A DNA stretch of 64,000 bases from a virus (lineage: Duplodnaviria > Caudoviricetes). The notes under the pieces are model-generated. The model saw only the letters and a list, made by a program, of their open reading frames with translations, made no database searches and had not been told where the DNA came from. The translations under genes and the position numbers were made by a program. Position 1 is the stretch's first letter. The number at the start of each line of letters is the position of its first letter. Location: IMG/VR virus record IMGVR_UViG_3300033067_001199, positions 1 to 64,000 of that record, one strand, 5' to 3'. Below are positions 30,391 through 52,246 of the stretch, in pieces.

Positions 30391-30423
30391 CCGCACGTTT
30401 TTTATACCCGATACGTTATGCTC
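30391..30423 (-). repeat. attC-like left half-site (GAGCATAAC-GTATCGGGTATAAAAAACGTGCGG)
   Basis: The stop of a small ORF lies in ...TAAC. The GTATCGGGTAT arm is identical to the start of the arm at 50147. Confidence 0.6.
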
Positions 30424-41541: not shown

Positions 41542-41883
41542 ATGAAAACAGAAACTTCAACAAACCACGTCAACCCGCCTGCCGCAAAACCATTGTTGGC
41601 AGCAGTTAATTGGGAACCACGTTTTTTTGCCGAGATAGATGAAAAGCAAGAAGATGGCGATTACTTGAGATTACAACAATGCTGCACTGGTTGCGGGGCT
41701 TTCACAGGAGATTTACCCGGTTATTACTACATAGAAGATAGCGATGCGTGTCCAAAATGCAGAGAGCAAAGTGGCGAAGAGAAGTGGAGCGAAGAAGTAA
41801 TAAGAATAGTTACTCGGCAAAAAATGGATAAGTCAGATATTGATGAGTTGAAAAAAGATTTGTCGGAATATGTCGGCATTTAA
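41542..41883 (+). CDS. Cassette ORF: Zn-finger-like hypothetical (CCTGCG...CPKC); N-terminus encoded by a repeat arm
   Basis: NPPAAKPLLAAV is encoded by the right half-site; the stop is adjacent to the left half-site. Confidence 0.7.
   Translation: MKTETSTNHVNPPAAKPLLAAVNWEPRFFAEIDEKQEDGDYLRLQQCCTGCGAFTGDLPGYYYIEDSDACPKCREQSGEEKWSEEVIRIVTRQKMDKSDIDELKKDLSEYVGI
41574..41605 (+). repeat. attC-like right half-site (CCCGCCTGCCGCAAAACCATT-GTTGGCAGCAG)
   Basis: GTT core at 41595; complementary (with G.T pairs) to 41884-41917. Confidence 0.75.
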
Positions 41884-41917
41884 TTGTTGCTAACGTGATG
41901 CAGCTTGTGGCAGTGCG
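41884..41917 (+). repeat. attC-like left half-site (TTGTTGCTAAC-GTGATGCAGCTTGTGGCAGTGCG)
   Basis: AAC core right after the stop; pairs 11/11 (WC or G.T) with GTTGGCAGCAG; GTGGCAG pairs with CTGCCGC. Confidence 0.75.
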
Positions 41918-41986
41918 ACTATAACCGATAAATTTAATTTGGAACACTAAACCTTTTTTAAATAACCCTATAAACCCCTAACTATT

Positions 41987-42631
41987 ATGATTTGCGATAA
42001 CTGCTTAAAAGACTGCGACAAACTAACTGATGTAACACAGGGCGATAACACGTTTGAGCTTTGTGAACAATGCGCTAGTGCGAAACACCTGCCCCATTAT
42101 GACCAACTACGCTATAAGAAAGTGAAAGAAACCTACTCCGAGGCGATTGTGTTCATTCGCTCTGGGGATTTCTATACTGCTCTGGGAACGGACGTTGACA
42201 AGGTATGTAATGCGCTCAAAATAGAGGCCTTTCCGCCTTATGATGGGCACCCGGAAACTGTCAACCTATCATCTATGCAGATGGATACTCATTTGCCTAA
42301 ATTGGTTCGAGCCGGTCATAAAGTAATCTTAATGGATGAACTGTCACACTCTGAAAAGAAACCTAGAACAGACCTAGACCTTGTTCAATGCTCCCCAGAT
42401 ATGTTTGAAGTAGGCAAGTACAACGTATTCTTCGGAGAGGAAGAGATTGGCACACTAGAAGACTGTACGGAGTCAAAAGGTATCTGGATAGCTAGACCCT
42501 TTGGCGTAGTAATGGGAAGCGGAGCATACAGCAAAGAAAGCGCTATTGCTCACCTTATGAAAGTAAGGAACGCAAGTATCACCAAGAAGCAACAAATAAC
42601 ACTATCCTCTAATCAAACATCGCTATTCTAA
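41987..42631 (+). CDS. Protein with a stand-alone MutS domain I
   Basis: RYKKVKETYSEAIVFIRSGDFYTALGTDVDKVCNALKI...LPKLVRAGHKVILMD; N-terminal CxxC...CxxC. Confidence 0.8.
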   Translation: MICDNCLKDCDKLTDVTQGDNTFELCEQCASAKHLPHYDQLRYKKVKETYSEAIVFIRSGDFYTALGTDVDKVCNALKIEAFPPYDGHPETVNLSSMQMDTHLPKLVRAGHKVILMDELSHSEKKPRTDLDLVQCSPDMFEVGKYNVFFGEEEIGTLEDCTESKGIWIARPFGVVMGSGAYSKESAIAHLMKVRNASITKKQQITLSSNQTSLF

Positions 42632-48893: not shown

Positions 48894-48906
48894 CTAAATT
48901 AGATAT

Positions 48907-49104
48907 ATGGTAAAATGCGTAAACTGTGGAGCGTCAATGTATGATAAGCCACTTCAAAGAACTAACCCAACAGGGCAAAGTGATGCCGGTTGGATGTGTC
49001 AAGATTGTATAAAAGCGATAGAGCCAGAGCTTTATCAAAACTTGAAAGACGATGGCGATTTAAAAATAGCCAACGATATTTTTAATGCTGTTAATGGAAA
49101 ATGA
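48907..49104 (+). CDS. Small Zn-finger protein
   Basis: CVNC...CQDC. Confidence 0.6.
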   Translation: MVKCVNCGASMYDKPLQRTNPTGQSDAGWMCQDCIKAIEPELYQNLKDDGDLKIANDIFNAVNGK

Positions 49105-49709
49105 TTAACTACTGCGACAAGTGCGCCAAAGTGCGAGGCATGGATGTTTTTACAATGCAAAAAAAGGCAAACTGCGATTTGTGCGGAGGATTCTTTATGT
49201 GTAACACAGACAAGACATCTTCCCTCAATTCACCGGCTGATGCTTTTTCCGAAAATGGATACTTTAATTCCAAAGACCTGTCACAACTGCTGGCCCTGAT
49301 TAAGAACAGGCAAAGCGTGTTGACTCCGAGGATTAAGCAACTGCAAACTGAATTATCTGGAAACTATGCTTTGGCTGTAATTGCTGATGATATAGATGAG
49401 ATTAAGGAACTTGTTGCCGCTGGACTAACTAAGAGGTCACTAGCCGGATTGCAGGGCGTAATAAAGAAGATATCGGGCATTTTAGCCAGGTGGAACTTTT
49501 CGGCACAAAGAGAAACCAAGTCAACTATCCTTCAGAACTTGATGGCCGAGAAGTCCGGGTTAGCTGAAAAGGAAAAGGAGTTGAGTATCCTTTATAAAAA
49601 TGCGCTGGACCAAATACTGATTAACCAACTGCGTTTCAGGGTAGGTCGGGAGGCTTTTGAAAAGTGCTATGAGGAGGCGAAGGGTATCTATTCAAAAACT
49701 AACAAGTAA
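49101..49709 (+). CDS. Hypothetical protein with N-terminal Zn ribbon and coiled coil
   Basis: CDKC...CDLC. Confidence 0.65.
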   Translation: MINYCDKCAKVRGMDVFTMQKKANCDLCGGFFMCNTDKTSSLNSPADAFSENGYFNSKDLSQLLALIKNRQSVLTPRIKQLQTELSGNYALAVIADDIDEIKELVAAGLTKRSLAGLQGVIKKISGILARWNFSAQRETKSTILQNLMAEKSGLAEKEKELSILYKNALDQILINQLRFRVGREAFEKCYEEAKGIYSKTNK

Positions 49710-49770
49710 TCCAAAGGATACACACAATGAAAGTAAAGTTTGAAAGCAGAGCGATTTGAGTAGTTAATGA

Positions 49771-49862
49771 AAACTAATAACGTTTTCGGGCTTGGCGAAG
49801 TGGCTGAACCTTAACTTAACCGAGATGTGTCAGGCGGCTATTGCAAAACCGCTGTTAGCCGC
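49771..49862 (+). repeat. attC-like site (hybrid): AAC 49779, arm 49787-49806, GTTAGCCGC 49854-49862
   Basis: Left arm CGGGCTTGGCGAAGTGGCTG, AT-rich loop, right arm CGGCTATTGCAAAACCGCT then GTT. Confidence 0.75.
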
Positions 49863-49888
49863 TGGCCTTTCTCACAACACAAATAAAA

Positions 49889-50137
49889 ATGTCAAAGAAA
49901 AAACAAACAACAGACCCAAAAGAAAAAGCAAAGCTGATGATTGAAGAAATTATCAAACTTGAAAGTAGGCTCACCTATATAGCCGTTCGAGAGGCTAAAG
50001 CTATTGCACGCCAAAGAATAAATGATGTAGTTGCAACTCTTGACGAACTAATTCAAATGCAAGATAGTGTTGGTCATGCTGTCGGAATGAAACACTGGTG
50101 GTTACAAGTTGATGAAATGATTGATGTAGTCGCTTAG
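49889..50137 (+). CDS. Cassette ORF, hypothetical (82 aa)
   Basis: Bounded by GTTAGCCGC upstream and GCGGC (TAAC missing) downstream. Confidence 0.7.
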   Translation: MSKKKQTTDPKEKAKLMIEEIIKLESRLTYIAVREAKAIARQRINDVVATLDELIQMQDSVGHAVGMKHWWLQVDEMIDVVA

Positions 50138-50141
50138 GCTT

Positions 50142-50236
50142 GCGGCGTATCGGGTATTGGCGATGCCCGCAACTTATAAACTTTGAATTATAAACAAGCT
50201 GTCAGGCGGGTATTGCCAATACCTTGTTAGCAGCAG
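50142..50236 (+). repeat. attC-like site with an 18-bp stem; core TAAC absent from the left end
   Basis: GGTATTGGCGATGCCCGC (50153-50170) pairs with GCGGGTATTGCCAATACC (50206-50223), 16 WC + 2 G.T; then GTTAGCAGCAG at 50226. Confidence 0.85.
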
Positions 50237-50250
50237 TAACGGTAAATTAT

Positions 50251-50538
50251 ATGGCACTTGATTTAGAAAAAATTAGCAAAAAGTTAGACGAGGCTTTGGC
50301 AAATATGACACAGGAAGAAATTGACAAATATTTTCCTCCTGATACTCGTCCAAAAGGGTGGTTAAGTATTGAAGAATATTTACCAATGATGTATGCAATT
50401 GACATTATGCAAGGATATACACTTTACAAGGTTAAAGATAAAGACGGCAAAGAATTTGAAAGTGCTGTGTCCGACCATAATGTTTGGTATTATATGGCAA
50501 AAGAAGCCGGTATTACTCACTGGTGGAACGTGGAGTAG
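50251..50538 (+). CDS. Cassette ORF, hypothetical (start ATG 50251)
   Basis: Bounded by GTTAGCAGCAG (50226) and TTGCTGATAAC (50542-50552). Confidence 0.7.
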   Translation: MALDLEKISKKLDEALANMTQEEIDKYFPPDTRPKGWLSIEEYLPMMYAIDIMQGYTLYKVKDKDGKEFESAVSDHNVWYYMAKEAGITHWWNVE

Positions 50539-50541
50539 TTA

Positions 50542-50552
50542 TTGCTGATAAC
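50542..50552 (+). repeat. attC-like inverse core (TTGCTGATAAC); rest of the site lost
   Basis: Complementary to GTTAGCAGCAG at 10/11 positions, allowing G.T. Confidence 0.6.
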
Positions 50553-50562
50553 AAATACTAAA

Positions 50563-51069
50563 ATGAAAATCAATAGAATTTGGGCAATGCCCTCACATCA
50601 CACTTTTAAAATTAAACCAATCGCAGAATTGGTAAGTAGATACGTTGGGGATGGCATTGGATGGATAGACCCTTTTGCAGGCGAAAACAGCCCTGCTGAA
50701 TTTACAAATGATATGAACCCCGAAAAGCCCGCTAAATTTCACTTACACGCTAAAGACTTTGCAGCGCAATTAGACGGCACTTACAAAGGGGTATTATTCG
50801 ACCCGCCATACTCACTAAGGCAGGTTAAAGAGTGTTACGAAAGCATAGGGGTGAAGCTGTTTCAAGAAGATACACAACGTTTCCCGCAAAATGTAAAGGA
50901 ACATATTAGCCCTAAAATAGTTACCGGTGGGTATGCTATAACCTTTGGCTGGAATAGCCAAGGTTTTGGTAAAAAGCAAGGTTTTGAATTGATTGAGGTG
51001 TTATTAGTGCCACATGGGCGGGGGCATAATGACACCATTGTAACAGTAGAAATAAAAGTAGAATGTTAA
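50563..51069 (+). CDS. Compact adenine DNA methyltransferase-like protein (168 aa)
   Basis: WIDPFAG SAM-binding motif followed by VLFDPPYS; start ATG 50563. Confidence 0.8.
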   Translation: MKINRIWAMPSHHTFKIKPIAELVSRYVGDGIGWIDPFAGENSPAEFTNDMNPEKPAKFHLHAKDFAAQLDGTYKGVLFDPPYSLRQVKECYESIGVKLFQEDTQRFPQNVKEHISPKIVTGGYAITFGWNSQGFGKKQGFELIEVLLVPHGRGHNDTIVTVEIKVEC

Positions 51070-51109
51070 CCCAACCGCTTAGGTTACTAAACTTTAAAAT
51101 TAAAAACAA

Positions 51110-51427
51110 ATGTCAAATAGAATTACTGAACAGCCATTTTGCCAAACCCGTGTTAGTGGCAGTAGATTATCAGGAAAAACCAATGCTATGATTTTATCAA
51201 TGATACCTGAACTTAAAGCAGGTCATAAAATTGGTGTTGCAGGTTGTAAAGACCCGAAATATATTACTGAACGCTTAAAAGCATACGGAATTGAAGTGCA
51301 AAGTGAACCAATGATTGCAACACAACCGATGAAAGCCATTCATAACTTGAATAGCATTGAGGGCGAAATAATAGGATTTGAGAATGGCGAGAAAGTTCAG
51401 ACAGGGTTTCTGTTCTATTGCCACTAA
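51110..51427 (+). CDS. Cassette ORF with a P-loop-like motif; start codon inside the repeat loop
   Basis: MSNRITEQPFCQTRVSGS is encoded by the loop and right arm; GSRLSGKT; the stop TAA lies in GCCACTAAC. Confidence 0.7.
   Translation: MSNRITEQPFCQTRVSGSRLSGKTNAMILSMIPELKAGHKIGVAGCKDPKYITERLKAYGIEVQSEPMIATQPMKAIHNLNSIEGEIIGFENGEKVQTGFLFYCH
51131..51162 (+). repeat. attC-like right half-site (CAGCCATTTTGCCAAACCCG-T-GTTAGTGGCAG)
   Basis: Pairs 19/20 (17 WC + 2 G.T) with the arm at 49787-49806. Confidence 0.85.
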
Positions 51428-51428
51428 C
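51418..51428 (+). repeat. attC-like inverse core TTGCCACTAAC
   Basis: 10/11 exact reverse complement of GTTAGTGGCAG (51152-51162). Confidence 0.8.
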
Positions 51429-51465
51429 GTAATACATCACGAAACTTCCATGAAAATCAATCAAT

Positions 51466-52116
51466 ATGGCAACAATAAAGATTTATACAGACGGCTCATG
51501 CCTGTTGAATCCTGGCGGTCCGGGCGGATGGGCTTTTGTTGTGGCAGACCACACCGATATAACTATAACCGACTCTACTTCGTTTTTCTGCGGTGGCAAC
51601 AAGGAAACCACGAACAACGCAATGGAGTTGACAGCCATTCTCGAAGCTCTTAGGTGGGCGGAGGATAACAACCGGAGTAGCTTCATAATTCATTCCGACT
51701 CCAAATACTCGATGAATGTATGCAATAATTGGATGCACATTTGGGCGCGTAACTCTTGGAAGAACAGAGAGGGTCAGAAAATAGCCAATGATGGTATAGT
51801 AAAGAGCATTTACAACCTATCTACAAAAGTTGCTTTTAAGGTTGAGTGGGTAGCTGGGCACAGCGGCAACGTATTCAATGAGTTTGCCGACTCTCTGGCT
51901 AGTAAGATGGCATTCCGGATACAGGGCAAAGAGTATGCAAAGTATTCTGACACCGGCCCTGGTGACAGGGTGATGGTTGGCTCCTCCCCATTTCGGATTA
52001 TTGCCAAATTTATTTCAACTAACATTGTCGTACTGCAGCCGATATTCGATAAGAGGCTAAAGACCATGATTCTTGAGGCTGATGAGTTTGACAACAGAGA
52101 ATACATAAAAATATAA
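51466..52116 (+). CDS. rnhA: Ribonuclease HI
   Basis: IYTDGSC..NPGGPGGW, TTNNAMELTA, IHSDSKY, WVAGHSGNVFNEFADSLA. Confidence 0.95.
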   Translation: MATIKIYTDGSCLLNPGGPGGWAFVVADHTDITITDSTSFFCGGNKETTNNAMELTAILEALRWAEDNNRSSFIIHSDSKYSMNVCNNWMHIWARNSWKNREGQKIANDGIVKSIYNLSTKVAFKVEWVAGHSGNVFNEFADSLASKMAFRIQGKEYAKYSDTGPGDRVMVGSSPFRIIAKFISTNIVVLQPIFDKRLKTMILEADEFDNREYIKI

Positions 52117-52120
52117 CACT

Positions 52121-52246
52121 ATGGTACACGAATTAAAGACTTGGCCCCCATACTTTAAGGCAGTAAAAGACGGCACTAAAACATTTGAAGTTAGGAAACT
52201 CCATGAGCGTTCCTGTTATAAGAAAGATTTTATCAAACGTCATTAA
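52121..52246 (+). pseudogene. Truncated ASCH/DUF3850-like gene (41 aa)
   Basis: MVHELKTWPPYFKAVKDGTKTFEVRK, then divergent sequence and an early stop. Confidence 0.6.

Follow-up and report, generated by a model that had tools for sequence, protein, structure and literature searches.

A partly fossilised, integrase-less gene-cassette array in a phage genome and its relatives in a probably integron-like hairpin family of Bacteroidota phages

An integrase-less, partly fossilised array of gene cassettes is located at positions 49771 to 51428 of the window, i.e., the 64,000-nt stretch of a Caudoviricetes virus (IMG/VR record IMGVR_UViG_3300033067_001199) analyzed here, and is accompanied by a solitary extra unit at 41.5 kb. 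Its sites are homologous to a very large family of hairpin elements, the lack of which an earlier note, made from the sequence alone, would have counted against cassette exchange. We consider it probable that this large and nearly undescribed family, which is common in Bacteroidota phages, is an integron-like cassette system to which the array and the solitary unit of the window belong.

Cassettes and Sites of the Window

For the delimitation of cassettes, 5' ends were compared with the reverse complements of 3' ends over all pairs. Cassettes 1 (49854-50146), 2 (50226-50552), and 3 (51152-51428) of the array as well as the solitary cassette 4 (41595-41894), all on the plus strand, are terminated by inverted repeats of 11 to 18 nt (GTTA...TAAC), in agreement with the earlier description of ORFs bracketed by a GTT core and its own complement and with the sites counted at 41574-41917. 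In case of cassette 1, GCCGCTGGCCT (49858-49868) pairs with AGGCTTGCGGC (50136-50146) at 11/11 positions, the usual TG/TT mispair of the family included. Matches amount to 13/15 for cassette 2 (GTTAGCAGCAGTAAC, 50226-50240, against 50538-50552), 14/15 for cassette 3 (GTTAGTGGCAGTAGA, 51152-51166, against 51414-51428), and 14/18 for cassette 4 (41595-41612 against 41877-41894). Position 11 carries G against A of the reverse complement in cassettes 2, 3, and 4, and a TG/AA variant, which is found in the family too, in cassette 1. The motif TGTTAGYRGC occurs four times in the window at an expectation of 0.4.

Cassette 1 consists of the R' box GTTAGCCGCTGGCCT, an ORF of 82 aa (49889-50137), and the R'' box AGGCTTGCGGC; its TAAC core is lost and GTATC is found at that position. 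Cassette 2 comprises R' GTTAGCAGCAGTAAC, an ORF of 95 aa (50251-50538), and R'' GTTATTGCTGATAAC, and neither of the two ORFs was assigned to a protein family. Cassette 3, delimited by R' GTTAGTGGCAGTAGA and R'' TCTATTGCCACTAAC, contains an ORF of 105 aa (51110-51427) that begins within the loop of site s3 and whose stop codon is the TAA of R'', which represents the terminal junction of the array. TAAC is present at 50549-50552 and 51425-51428, and no inner arm follows either core. A DNA methyltransferase gene (50563-51069, plus strand; 168 aa, DPPY motif, phrog_11619 with E = 1.5e-33) with a 46% identical homologue in locus L067 has no site in front of it; TGTTAAC forms its end, and the truncated site s3 adjoins it. 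The ORF of the solitary cassette (41542-41883, plus strand; 113 aa, no family match) begins upstream of the right arm (41570-41612, L' and R' GTTGGCAGCAGTTAATTG) and reads through it (..NPPAAKPLLAAV..). No partner left arm was found upstream of this right arm, and its R'' (..TTGTTGCTAAC) is followed by a degenerate L''-like arm (GTGATGCAGCTTGTGGCAGTGCG; together 41877-41915, plus strand, HMM E = 0.17). Homologues of cassettes 1, 2, and 4 were not detected by tblastn in any of the fetched loci.

The first version of our element detector missed almost everything at a score of at least 30 and returned no window elements even at a score of 22. As the window sites are too degraded for this detector, they were assessed with family profile HMMs (nhmmer) and with the covariance model (CM) R1, built solely from other genomes. 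Right-arm HMM matches were obtained at 51122-51171 (E = 6.6e-7), 49837-49874 (1e-3), 50180-50243 (4e-3), and 41578-41611 (0.08), and a left-arm match at 49773-49808 (1.3e-6). R1 scored 39.7 bits at 50136-50240 (E = 4.5e-6) and 37.5 bits at 49767-49868 (E = 1.3e-5), with weak scores at 51060-51166 (18 bits, E = 0.13) and 41880-42045 (12.5 bits, E = 1.7, not significant). Two further suggestions of the earlier note were not sustained: 30391-30423 gave neither an HMM nor a CM match, and no supported site was found on the minus strand of the window. An Rfam search of three window loci yielded just sub-threshold miRNA and lncRNA noise.

Site s2 (50136-50240, plus strand), with an 18-bp inner stem and an AT-rich loop, is the only window site that still forms the family hairpin (50136-50242, -21.1 kcal/mol, z = -3.1 against shuffles). 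The long imperfect stems which the earlier note had placed between the cassettes are thus confirmed here, but not at the other three sites (49766-49872, z = -0.9; 51056-51168; 41880-42025), where folding is no better than in shuffled sequences. Site s1 (49767-49868, plus strand; TAAC at 49778-49781) is a chimera with several broken pairs, whose left arm (49787-49810) is a “type 1” L'' and whose right arm (49829-49853) is of another subtype, followed by the GTTA of R' at 49854. Site s3 (51085-51155, plus strand; ATG at 51110) is of type 1 and has retained its loop and its right arm, the left arm being missing; together with 49778-49810 it would form one whole type 1 element, the halves of which are now approximately 1.27 kb apart. 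The many joints from 49810 to 51084 in other contigs were considered as deletion variants of the window phage and rejected, since they stem from further type 1 elements that are intact. With one site that folds, one chimera, one site without left arm, and one cassette without TAAC, the window copy is eroded and the sites in this phage lineage are decaying, which suggests that the array is largely frozen.

Size and Structure of the Family

The pattern of one subtype alone was found in at least 120 IMG/VR stretches, usually with a distance of 86 nt between its two arms. The fetched loci (1.1 Mb) yielded 497 detector-identified elements, with as many as 14 in one array, and 357 cassettes; as the detector requires AACG..TGTT and arm complementarity, some of the statistics are conditioned on that definition. 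In the contig scan of genomes, most single matches were chance 20-mer matches in unrelated phyla, and only paired-arm and detector-confirmed matches were used.

The commonest size class of sites is 110 to 125 nt with an AT-rich loop. RNAalifold predicted 24 pairs from 46 diverse sites, of which 18 show compensatory double changes and one G:U pair is kept in 44 of the 46. Inner stems are 87% Watson-Crick paired over 8502 positions, and G:T pairs are found 659 times on the sense strand versus 260 times on the other strand. Of 279 cassettes, 132 have an ATG within the site, the right arm being translated. A conserved N-terminal peptide (..AKPLLAAV..) with synonymous-looking differences was considered as the primary signal and rejected: the type 1 subfamily reads the same DNA in another frame (..QPFCQTRVSGS..), and covariation of the stem accounts for the pattern.

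The two ends of a cassette match each other and not those of the neighbor, as the earlier note had proposed: over the 12 nt beyond GTTA, identity in the 357 cassettes is 7.8 (mode 10) for a cassette's own ends versus 4.0 for the boxes of the same site. This own-end stem comprises 15 bp. Positions 1-4 (TAAC/GTTA) are invariant, the next three positions accept any base pair, and positions 5-10 and 12-15 covary freely, whereas at position 11 a G:T pair is found in 170 of 185 cassettes and a Watson-Crick pair in none.

Breakpoints and Linkage of Sites to Downstream ORFs

In the sister Flavobacterium phages Muminvirus filifjonk, mumin, and tooticki, three indels were observed, each with both breakpoints inside the 7-nt sequence TAACGTT (TAAC|GTT) and each comprising a site plus its downstream ORF. 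The same linkage is evident from 47 pairs in which the same cassette occurs in different loci: the upstream site differs by 0.4 to 1.1 mismatches per 26 positions and the downstream site by 8 to 9 per 26. The cassette 3 unit of the window is 97% identical at the nucleotide level to positions 2240-2617 of L144, a locus with an intact array, and the homology ends after CACTAACGT (TAACGT), whereas its left boundary lies inside the loop and not at a core. Window sites are 94 to 97% identical to sites in otherwise unrelated phages. The Muminvirus indels and the end of the L144 homology support modular gene capture or shuffling with the logic of integrons, as had been suggested. The polarity differs from the suggested one, however: the breakpoints place the crossover at the TAAC|G edge, so that the hairpin belongs to the downstream ORF and not, as in classical cassettes, to the upstream one.

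Relatives of the window locus were found via homologues of ORF 49101; the RNase H protein as bait retrieved no syntenic IMG/VR relatives. In the relatives, 1 to approximately 12 genes separate ORF 49101 from the RNase H gene. The changes seen in this lineage are not TAAC-precise; they comprise deletions with imprecise ends as well as swaps of the whole module at gene boundaries unrelated to GTT/AAC. The 99%-related contig L259 has kept the cassette 1 ORF and lacks s1. Gain and loss of ORFs precisely at the core, for which the earlier note had recommended a comparison of related phages, is thus seen in Muminvirus but not in the window's own lineage.

In four river or wastewater metagenome runs (Logan contigs), the depth of the three window sites exceeds that of their flanks 100- to 200-fold. 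Logan contigs end exactly at 49865 and 50146, and cassette 2 occurs as a separate contig of 331 to 344 nt in four metagenome runs, one of them without the phage backbone. Circular cassettes were not seen among these assembled contigs.

Recombinases Adjacent to Arrays

No tyrosine recombinase had been recognized in the window, and PF00589 has no match across the whole 72-kb record. This domain is present in 7 of 39 carrier records, and among the 16 records with a completeness of 90% or more a tyrosine recombinase is found in one; none is encoded by Muminvirus phage filifjonk9-1, which is in culture. In L128, L131, L132, L133, and L134, the gene of a short Xer-like recombinase starts 40 to 55 nt after the terminal TAAC. 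From TAAC|ATCTTTC.. onward (L131: TAAC|ATCTTTCTTCCCGC...), L131, L132, and L133 share one and the same sequence; the three cassettes that they carry to the left of this junction are unrelated. The array-adjacent recombinases (265-298 aa) are Xer/IntI-like, their best solved relatives being XerA (4A8E, 5HXY) followed by IntI4 (2A3V). They match TIGR02249 in two stretches below every curated cut-off, positions 179-238 being skipped, and are devoid of the IntI-specific insertion. The candidate enzyme is not a host IntI-like enzyme, which the earlier note had considered, but an Xer-like recombinase without this insertion, encoded in a minority of carriers. Other recurrent genes near arrays (terminase, DnaB, NinG, and lysozyme) were inspected as well, and none is a candidate site-specific recombinase.

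Comparison with Known Systems

The family resembles integron cassettes, especially sedentary chromosomal ones with uniform VCR-type sites of approximately 120 nt in Vibrio, in its imperfect palindromes with an outer AAC/GTT core pair. As in attC, the inner stem is conserved as structure and not as sequence (in the window, it is intact solely at 50136-50240). As in integrons, crossover in the core makes a cassette's own ends match, one-gene units are arranged head to tail, content differs between close relatives, and some carriers have a tyrosine recombinase of the Xer/IntI clade beside an invariant terminal junction. In contrast to attC, which is situated 3' of an ORF and moves with the upstream one, the family site precedes its ORF at the 5' side, on the sense strand, and in many cases provides the start codon and N-terminus. 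Its outer stem of 15 bp contains a fixed G:T (7 bp in attC), its spacer is asymmetric with 5 nt against 1-2 nt, and the RYYY/RRRY positions of attC (R'' RYYYAAC, R' GTTRRRY) are not kept. Unlike integrons, the family resides in phages, most of them without a recombinase, and the recombinase, where present, is short and lacks the IntI-specific extra domain.

In T4-type phages, PeSL cassettes, which Arbiol, Comeau, and Krisch reportedly described in 2010, are modules of promoter and stem-loop flanking small accessory ORFs in hyperplastic early regions. They are said to drive modular shuffling by homologous recombination between repeats. Breakpoints of our family, however, lie at the 7-nt core outside the conserved stem, and the downstream repeat is not retained with the cassette. 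The units moreover have cassette-specific paired ends and are sometimes adjacent to a recombinase. An Xer-type tyrosine recombinase also acts on the attP of CTX-phi, a hairpin of single-stranded phage DNA with deliberate mismatches (XerCD). Compared by description, attP provides one site at which an entire phage genome integrates, whereas the family sites belong to arrays of gene units.

The closest publication is that of Qi, Ghaly, Tetu, and Gillings 2023 (PMC9892861), who found 17 CALINs in 10,705 phage genomes and demonstrated recombination with IntI1 for several attC-like sites carried by phages. AttC-like sites without integrase, virulent Flavobacteriaceae phages, and DNA methyltransferase cargo are common to these CALINs and our family. 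In particular, Polaribacter phage P12002L carries a CALIN with methyltransferase cassettes (PMC9892861), the P12002L_attC1 of which (TGCTAACGG...CCATTGTTAGGC) is a compact site of the TAACG..TGTTA design of the family, the only such relative caught in that study. P12002L_attC1 was found by HattCI only and was the sole site of six tested that did not recombine with IntI1 (PMC9892861). It is the only family-like site with an experimental result, and its failure counts against the recombination reading. In view of the 17 CALINs in 10,705 genomes and the lack of any mention of Flavobacterium in the text and a supplement of that study (PMC9892861), standard attC models appear to miss the hairpin family of Bacteroidota phages. 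The 15-bp own-end stem, the 5' polarity, the start-codon function, and the Xer-like recombinase are not described there.

Proposed Mechanism and Alternative Explanations

A unit consists of a folding site (..TAAC|G, a bulge of 4-5 nt, an inner stem L''/L' of approximately 19 bp, and a loop), an R' box (GTTA plus approximately 11 nt), and one ORF ending in R'', which is inversely complementary to the R' of the same unit. If the unit were a free circle, the pairing of R'' with R' would add the 15-bp outer stem to the inner stem and thereby complete the site, whereas in an array every site is a hybrid of two neighboring units. According to the reading that we favor, a tyrosine recombinase would excise and insert units, with the ORF-sense strand as its folded substrate and with cleavage at 5'-TAA|C of the 5' arm; the single-stranded substrate, the cleavage position, the acting enzyme, and the circular intermediates are inferred. 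Read on the other strand, the arrangement would correspond to the classical intI - attI - (G|TTRRRY..attC)n with every ORF inverted, and the site therefore precedes its gene. It supplies the translation start and the first codons in approximately half of the units. As the window phage lacks a recombinase, movement would need an enzyme in trans. To a more far-reaching picture we give an even chance: a mirror-image integron of Bacteroidota and their phages, in which one-gene units, each with a folded site before the gene that also acts as its translation start, are moved by a short Xer-like recombinase devoid of the IntI domain, and mostly enzyme-less phages stock and exchange anti-restriction methyltransferases, the window being a frozen outpost.

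Alternatively, the hairpins may primarily be expression elements of the polycistronic early mRNA, acting as 5' stem-loops through the start codon in the loop, transcript stability or processing (RNase III-type, as in T7 early mRNA), or translation coupling. In this case, genes would be shuffled as a side effect of homologous or microhomology recombination between the conserved sequences, as proposed for T4-type PeSL cassettes. The predominance of wobble pairs in favor of the mRNA-sense strand (659 vs. 260) with fixed G:U positions, the ATG within the site in 132/279 cassettes with a translated right arm, the lack of a recombinase in most carriers, and the failure of P12002L_attC1 with IntI1 fit this explanation, and the s1 chimera and the truncated s3 demonstrate that illegitimate or loop-level recombination occurs. 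Homologous recombination, however, would retain both flanking elements, whereas only the upstream one is retained, and the breakpoints fall into a 7-nt window without extended homology. An RNA-level role leaves unexplained the 15-bp pairing of a gene's 3' end with its own 5' end rather than with the neighbor, as well as the invariant junction beside the recombinase gene. We regard a primarily RNA-level role as unlikely, though RNA-level and recombination roles are not mutually exclusive.

Genes with GTTA...TAAC ends could also be mini transposon-like elements, mobilized preferentially into a conserved palindromic target by a transposase or HUH protein encoded elsewhere, in line with the terminal inverted repeats of 11 to 18 nt flanking single small ORFs and the presence of the same unit in unrelated backbones. 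The inner part of the repeat, however, varies freely between units while the adjoining hairpin is conserved, and the linkage of the hairpin to the downstream ORF makes it a part of the unit and not of the target. Target-site duplications were not seen, units are arranged head to tail in one orientation, and no transposase or HUH gene recurs near arrays, which leaves this explanation very improbable. Chance GTT/AAC inverted repeats of no shared origin around small ORFs, of which single 10-11-nt examples are expected in 64 kb and the 30391 site appears to be one, are refuted for the main array by significant HMM and CM matches of models from other genomes, by the 94-97% identity to sites in otherwise unrelated phages, and by covariation across the family, and deserve next to no credence.

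Cargo and Significance

The prevailing view of integrons is that of a bacterial device centered on IntI. To our knowledge, phages have so far contributed no more than a handful of examples, namely CALINs detected by means of classical attC models. The integron-like family is abundant and differs from these in its geometry and probably in its recombinase. For annotation, it implies that the start of many small phage genes is located within a repeat and that such sites are points of contig breakage. Cultured Flavobacterium phages and their hosts are available, hence recombination, circular intermediates, and the RNA alternative are directly testable.

The cargo consists mostly of DNA methyltransferases: near arrays, N6/N4 methyltransferases occur in 70 loci, besides C5 and Eco57I-like methyltransferases. 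Owing to this cargo, the arrays probably serve the evasion of host restriction, and Bacteroidota phages seem to trade anti-restriction genes through an integron-like system. In cultured Flavobacterium phages, differences in methyltransferase content correlate with plating efficiency (PMC7077304). If active, the system would explain these differences and would provide phages with a dedicated route for the assembly and exchange of counter-defence genes.

Gene content and cassette ends of the window locus

The window comprises the first 64 kb of a linear, 72-kb virus record that is ~82% complete. ORF 49101-49709 on the left and an RNase H gene on the right (51466-52116, PF00075 match) enclose four small plus-strand genes, namely ORFs of 82 aa (49889-50137) and 95 aa (50251-50538), a DNA methyltransferase gene (50563-51069, 168 aa; phrog_11619, E 1.5e-33) and an ORF of 105 aa (51110-51427). 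The three pairs of complementary ends described around small ORFs in the earlier note are present and extend further than was stated there. The ends of cassette 2 (50226-50552) match at 13 of 15 positions (GTTAGCAGCAGTAAC versus the reverse complement of GTTATTGCTGATAAC) and those of cassette 3 (51152-51428) at 14 of 15 (GTTAGTGGCAGTAGA versus TCTATTGCCACTAAC). In case of cassette 1 (49854-50146; GCCGCTGGCCT versus AGGCTTGCGGC), GTATC takes the place of the TAAC core. A solitary fourth unit (41542-41894) has ends that pair at 14 of 18 positions. Common to all 5' boxes of the window is a motif of ~25 nt, ..TTGCcAAAaCCnnTGTTRG.., located just upstream of each.

Relation to Flavobacterium phages and definition of the cassette unit

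The sole nucleotide similarity of the region 49000-52200 to deposited phages is a stretch of ~130 nt with 94% identity in Flavobacterium Muminvirus phages, where it is intergenic between two methyltransferase genes and forms an imperfect palindrome of ~120 nt. It is composed, in this order, of TAAC, GTTTT and a 20-nt arm, an AT-rich loop of ~55 nt in which the downstream gene has its ATG, and the complementary arm with T and GTTA. In filifjonk9-1, such elements of several sequence subtypes occur between all genes of a 5-kb block, which contains five methyltransferases and several small ORFs, and the own ends of each gene are inverted repeats of 14-16 nt, e.g., GTTAGTGGCAGTACT / GTTAGTGGCAATACT and GTTACCAGCAGTGCC / GTTACCAGCAATGCC.

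Three indels distinguish filifjonk, mumin and tooticki: one concerns a block of three genes, another a single gene, and in the third the terminal gene is replaced. Both edges of each lie inside the 7-nt sequence TAACGTT. The unit gained or lost in these sister phages is the site together with the downstream ORF and the 3' TAAC box (R''). Where one cassette is present in two contigs (47 pairs), its upstream site differs by 0.4-1.1 mismatches per 26 nt and its downstream site by 8-9 per 26. Since homologous recombination in shared repeats would retain both flanking sites, exchange takes place at the core. The cassette-3 unit of the window is 97% identical to a stretch of a Flavobacterium MAG contig (L144:2240-2617), in which it is flanked by two intact sites; homology ends right after CACTAACGT.

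Extent and structural features of the family

A degenerate 20-nt pattern for one subtype matched more than 120 IMG/VR stretches, a lower bound, with ~7 matches estimated by chance, typically as two arms 86 nt apart. A detector requiring AACG...TGTT and complementary arms, with ~0-1 false matches per 64 kb of shuffled sequence, identified 497 elements and 357 cassettes in 1.1 Mb of fetched loci, in arrays of up to 14. For 46 mutually diverse elements (MAFFT and RNAalifold), the consensus structure comprises 24 pairs, 18 of them with compensatory double changes and many columns with all four pair types; one G:U is retained in 44 of the 46 sequences. The inner stem, assessed in 432 unique elements, has 87% Watson-Crick pairs, and its non-canonical G:T pairs number 659 on the ORF-sense strand versus 260 on the other.

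The own ends of a cassette form an outer stem of 15 bp, with GTTA/TAAC at positions 1-4 and free covariation at positions 5-10 and 12-15. At position 11, 170 of 185 cassettes have G:T and none has a Watson-Crick pair. Beyond the core, own ends are identical at 7.8 of 12 positions compared to 4.0 of 12 for the two boxes of one array site, which come from two different cassettes and whose agreement does not exceed expectation. Directly 3' of the solitary cassette, a 214-aa ORF (41987-42631, +) matches the mismatch-recognition domain I of MutS (PF01624, E 1.4e-11). That such a domain, here on its own, adjoins sites with an invariant G:T mispair is a curious coincidence.

State of the window array

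Of the window sites, only that at 50136-50240 has retained the fold of the family hairpin (-21.1 kcal/mol, z -3.1; 39.7 bits with a covariance model built from other genomes). The site at 49767-49868 (37.5 bits) is a hybrid of a left arm of the type 1 subtype and a right arm from a different subtype, and fails to fold (z -0.9). That at 51085-51155, adjoined by the methyltransferase gene, has a type 1 loop and right arm and lacks the left arm. Joined to the left arm of type 1 present at 49778-49810, it would form one whole element, split by ~1.27 kb. Both junctions of this segment carry the 11-nt direct repeat TTAACYYAACC, as TTAACTTAACC (49811-49821) and TTAACCCAACC (51068-51078); the split could be due to secondary-site insertion or short-repeat recombination.

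Relatives found via homologues of ORF 49101 show the locus to be a hot spot. Two are 99% identical: L258 carries three unrelated genes and no sites, and L259 has kept cassette 1 and lost, by imprecise deletions, the site at 49767-49868 and the left arm of that at 50136-50240. L260 (79% identical) contains at least 7 sites and ~12 small ORFs, and L261 and L262 (64%) a single gene. Exchange of ORFs at breakpoints unrelated to GTT/AAC, which according to the earlier note would speak against a cassette system, is partly seen in the window lineage as module swaps at gene boundaries, but not family-wide. A second small indel beside the array concerns a Cys-rich 65-aa ORF (48907-49104; region 48896-49100), which two metagenome runs show to be cleanly missing from close relatives (joint 48895->49101).

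At the three sites, summed contig depth is 100-200 times that of the flanks in four metagenome runs, and contigs end at the cassette edges 49865, 50146, 50225 and 50552. One metagenome run contains cassettes 1 and 2 without the phage backbone. In runs X5, X6, X14 and X15, labelled as single-organism DNA of 'organism A', cassettes 1 and 2 with the site at 50136-50240 (49850-50552) are present and the backbone is absent on both sides, and therefore these cassettes exist in another genome. The window array is thus a genuine but eroded member of the family that is probably immobile. Family arrays also occur on MAG contigs assigned to taxa outside Bacteroidota, with the labels Candidatus Saccharibacteria (L176, 184,708 nt) and Proteocatella (L169); these are probably mis-binned phage contigs.

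Cargo and role of the sites in expression

In 132 of 279 unique cassettes that have a dominant ORF (median 115 aa), the ATG lies within the upstream site, so the site often supplies the initiation region and the first ~14 codons; the window ORFs at 51110 and 41542 belong to this group. No more than 25 nt separate the stop codon from the R'' end in 235 of the 279, and in 61 the stop is the TAA of TAAC. The main alternative to a recombination site is a hairpin with a dual or purely RNA-level role.

DNA methyltransferases make up most of the cargo; those of the N6/N4 type occur in 70 loci, and C5 and Eco57I-like ones are also present. Muminvirus phages are reported to differ in methyltransferase content, which tracks plating efficiency (Nilsson et al. 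2020); the repeats of these phages go unmentioned there. In or beside one array, a 727-aa ResIII/Helicase_C helicase fused to an N6_N4 methyltransferase (L054:1807-3990, -) clusters with cassette methyltransferases. Near another, a terminase large subunit contains an intein (L088:5262-7226; Terminase_3/6N and Intein_splicing/Hint matches).

Candidate recombinase and relation to integrons

The full record has no match to PF00589, and filifjonk9-1 has no annotated integrase. A tyrosine recombinase is encoded in 7 of 39 carrier records and in 1 of the 16 that are at least 90% complete. On five contigs, a recombinase gene (265-298 aa) begins 40-55 nt 3' of the terminal R'' TAAC, on the strand of the array. 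Three of these share one sequence that starts at TAAC|ATCTTTCTTCCCGC.. and extends into the gene of the recombinase, with three unrelated cassettes to the left, and in layout this invariant junction looks like an attI junction. The enzyme belongs to the Xer/IntI clade (NF040815 at 194-206 bits, under its cut-off), matches TIGR02249 in two segments, with the IntI-specific region left out, and has XerA (4A8E and 5HXY), then IntI4 (2A3V), as best solved relatives.

A Chitinophagaceae MAG yielded at least 21 strong model matches, among them a series on one contig of 1.2 Mb, with Xer-like homologues near some arrays. Several sites in a Chitinophagaceae MAG (L273:12971, L274:2754 and 12957, L162) are followed by an identical flank, GTTGAACTAAACCT, in one case ~100 nt upstream of an Xer-like recombinase gene; this flank may be a conserved leader or junction.

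Qi et al. (2023, PMC9892861) reported 17 CALINs in 10,705 phage genomes, and Polaribacter phage P12002L, whose cassettes encode methyltransferases, is among the carriers. P12002L_attC1 has the family design in compact form and maps to the interval between gp36 and gp35. It was detected by HattCI only and was the sole one of six sites that did not recombine with IntI1 (PMC9892861). Flavobacterium phages are not mentioned in text or supplement of that study. In the literature searched, the coverage of which was incomplete and does not prove absence, no description of the family, its polarity or its recombinase was found.

The earlier observation of an integron-like array was largely right, and its interpretation is supported, with corrections regarding polarity, enzyme and state of activity. 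Read on the complementary strand, the order is recombinase gene, invariant junction and (G|TTA..ORF..hairpin)n, which is the plan of a classical integron, except that every ORF is inverted. The wobble-bearing strand would then correspond to the recombinogenic 'bottom' strand of classical integrons. Two defining features of integrons, an attC 3' of the ORF and an IntI that has the additional domain, are lacking, but the family works alike, presumably through a tyrosine recombinase that would act on the folded sense strand.
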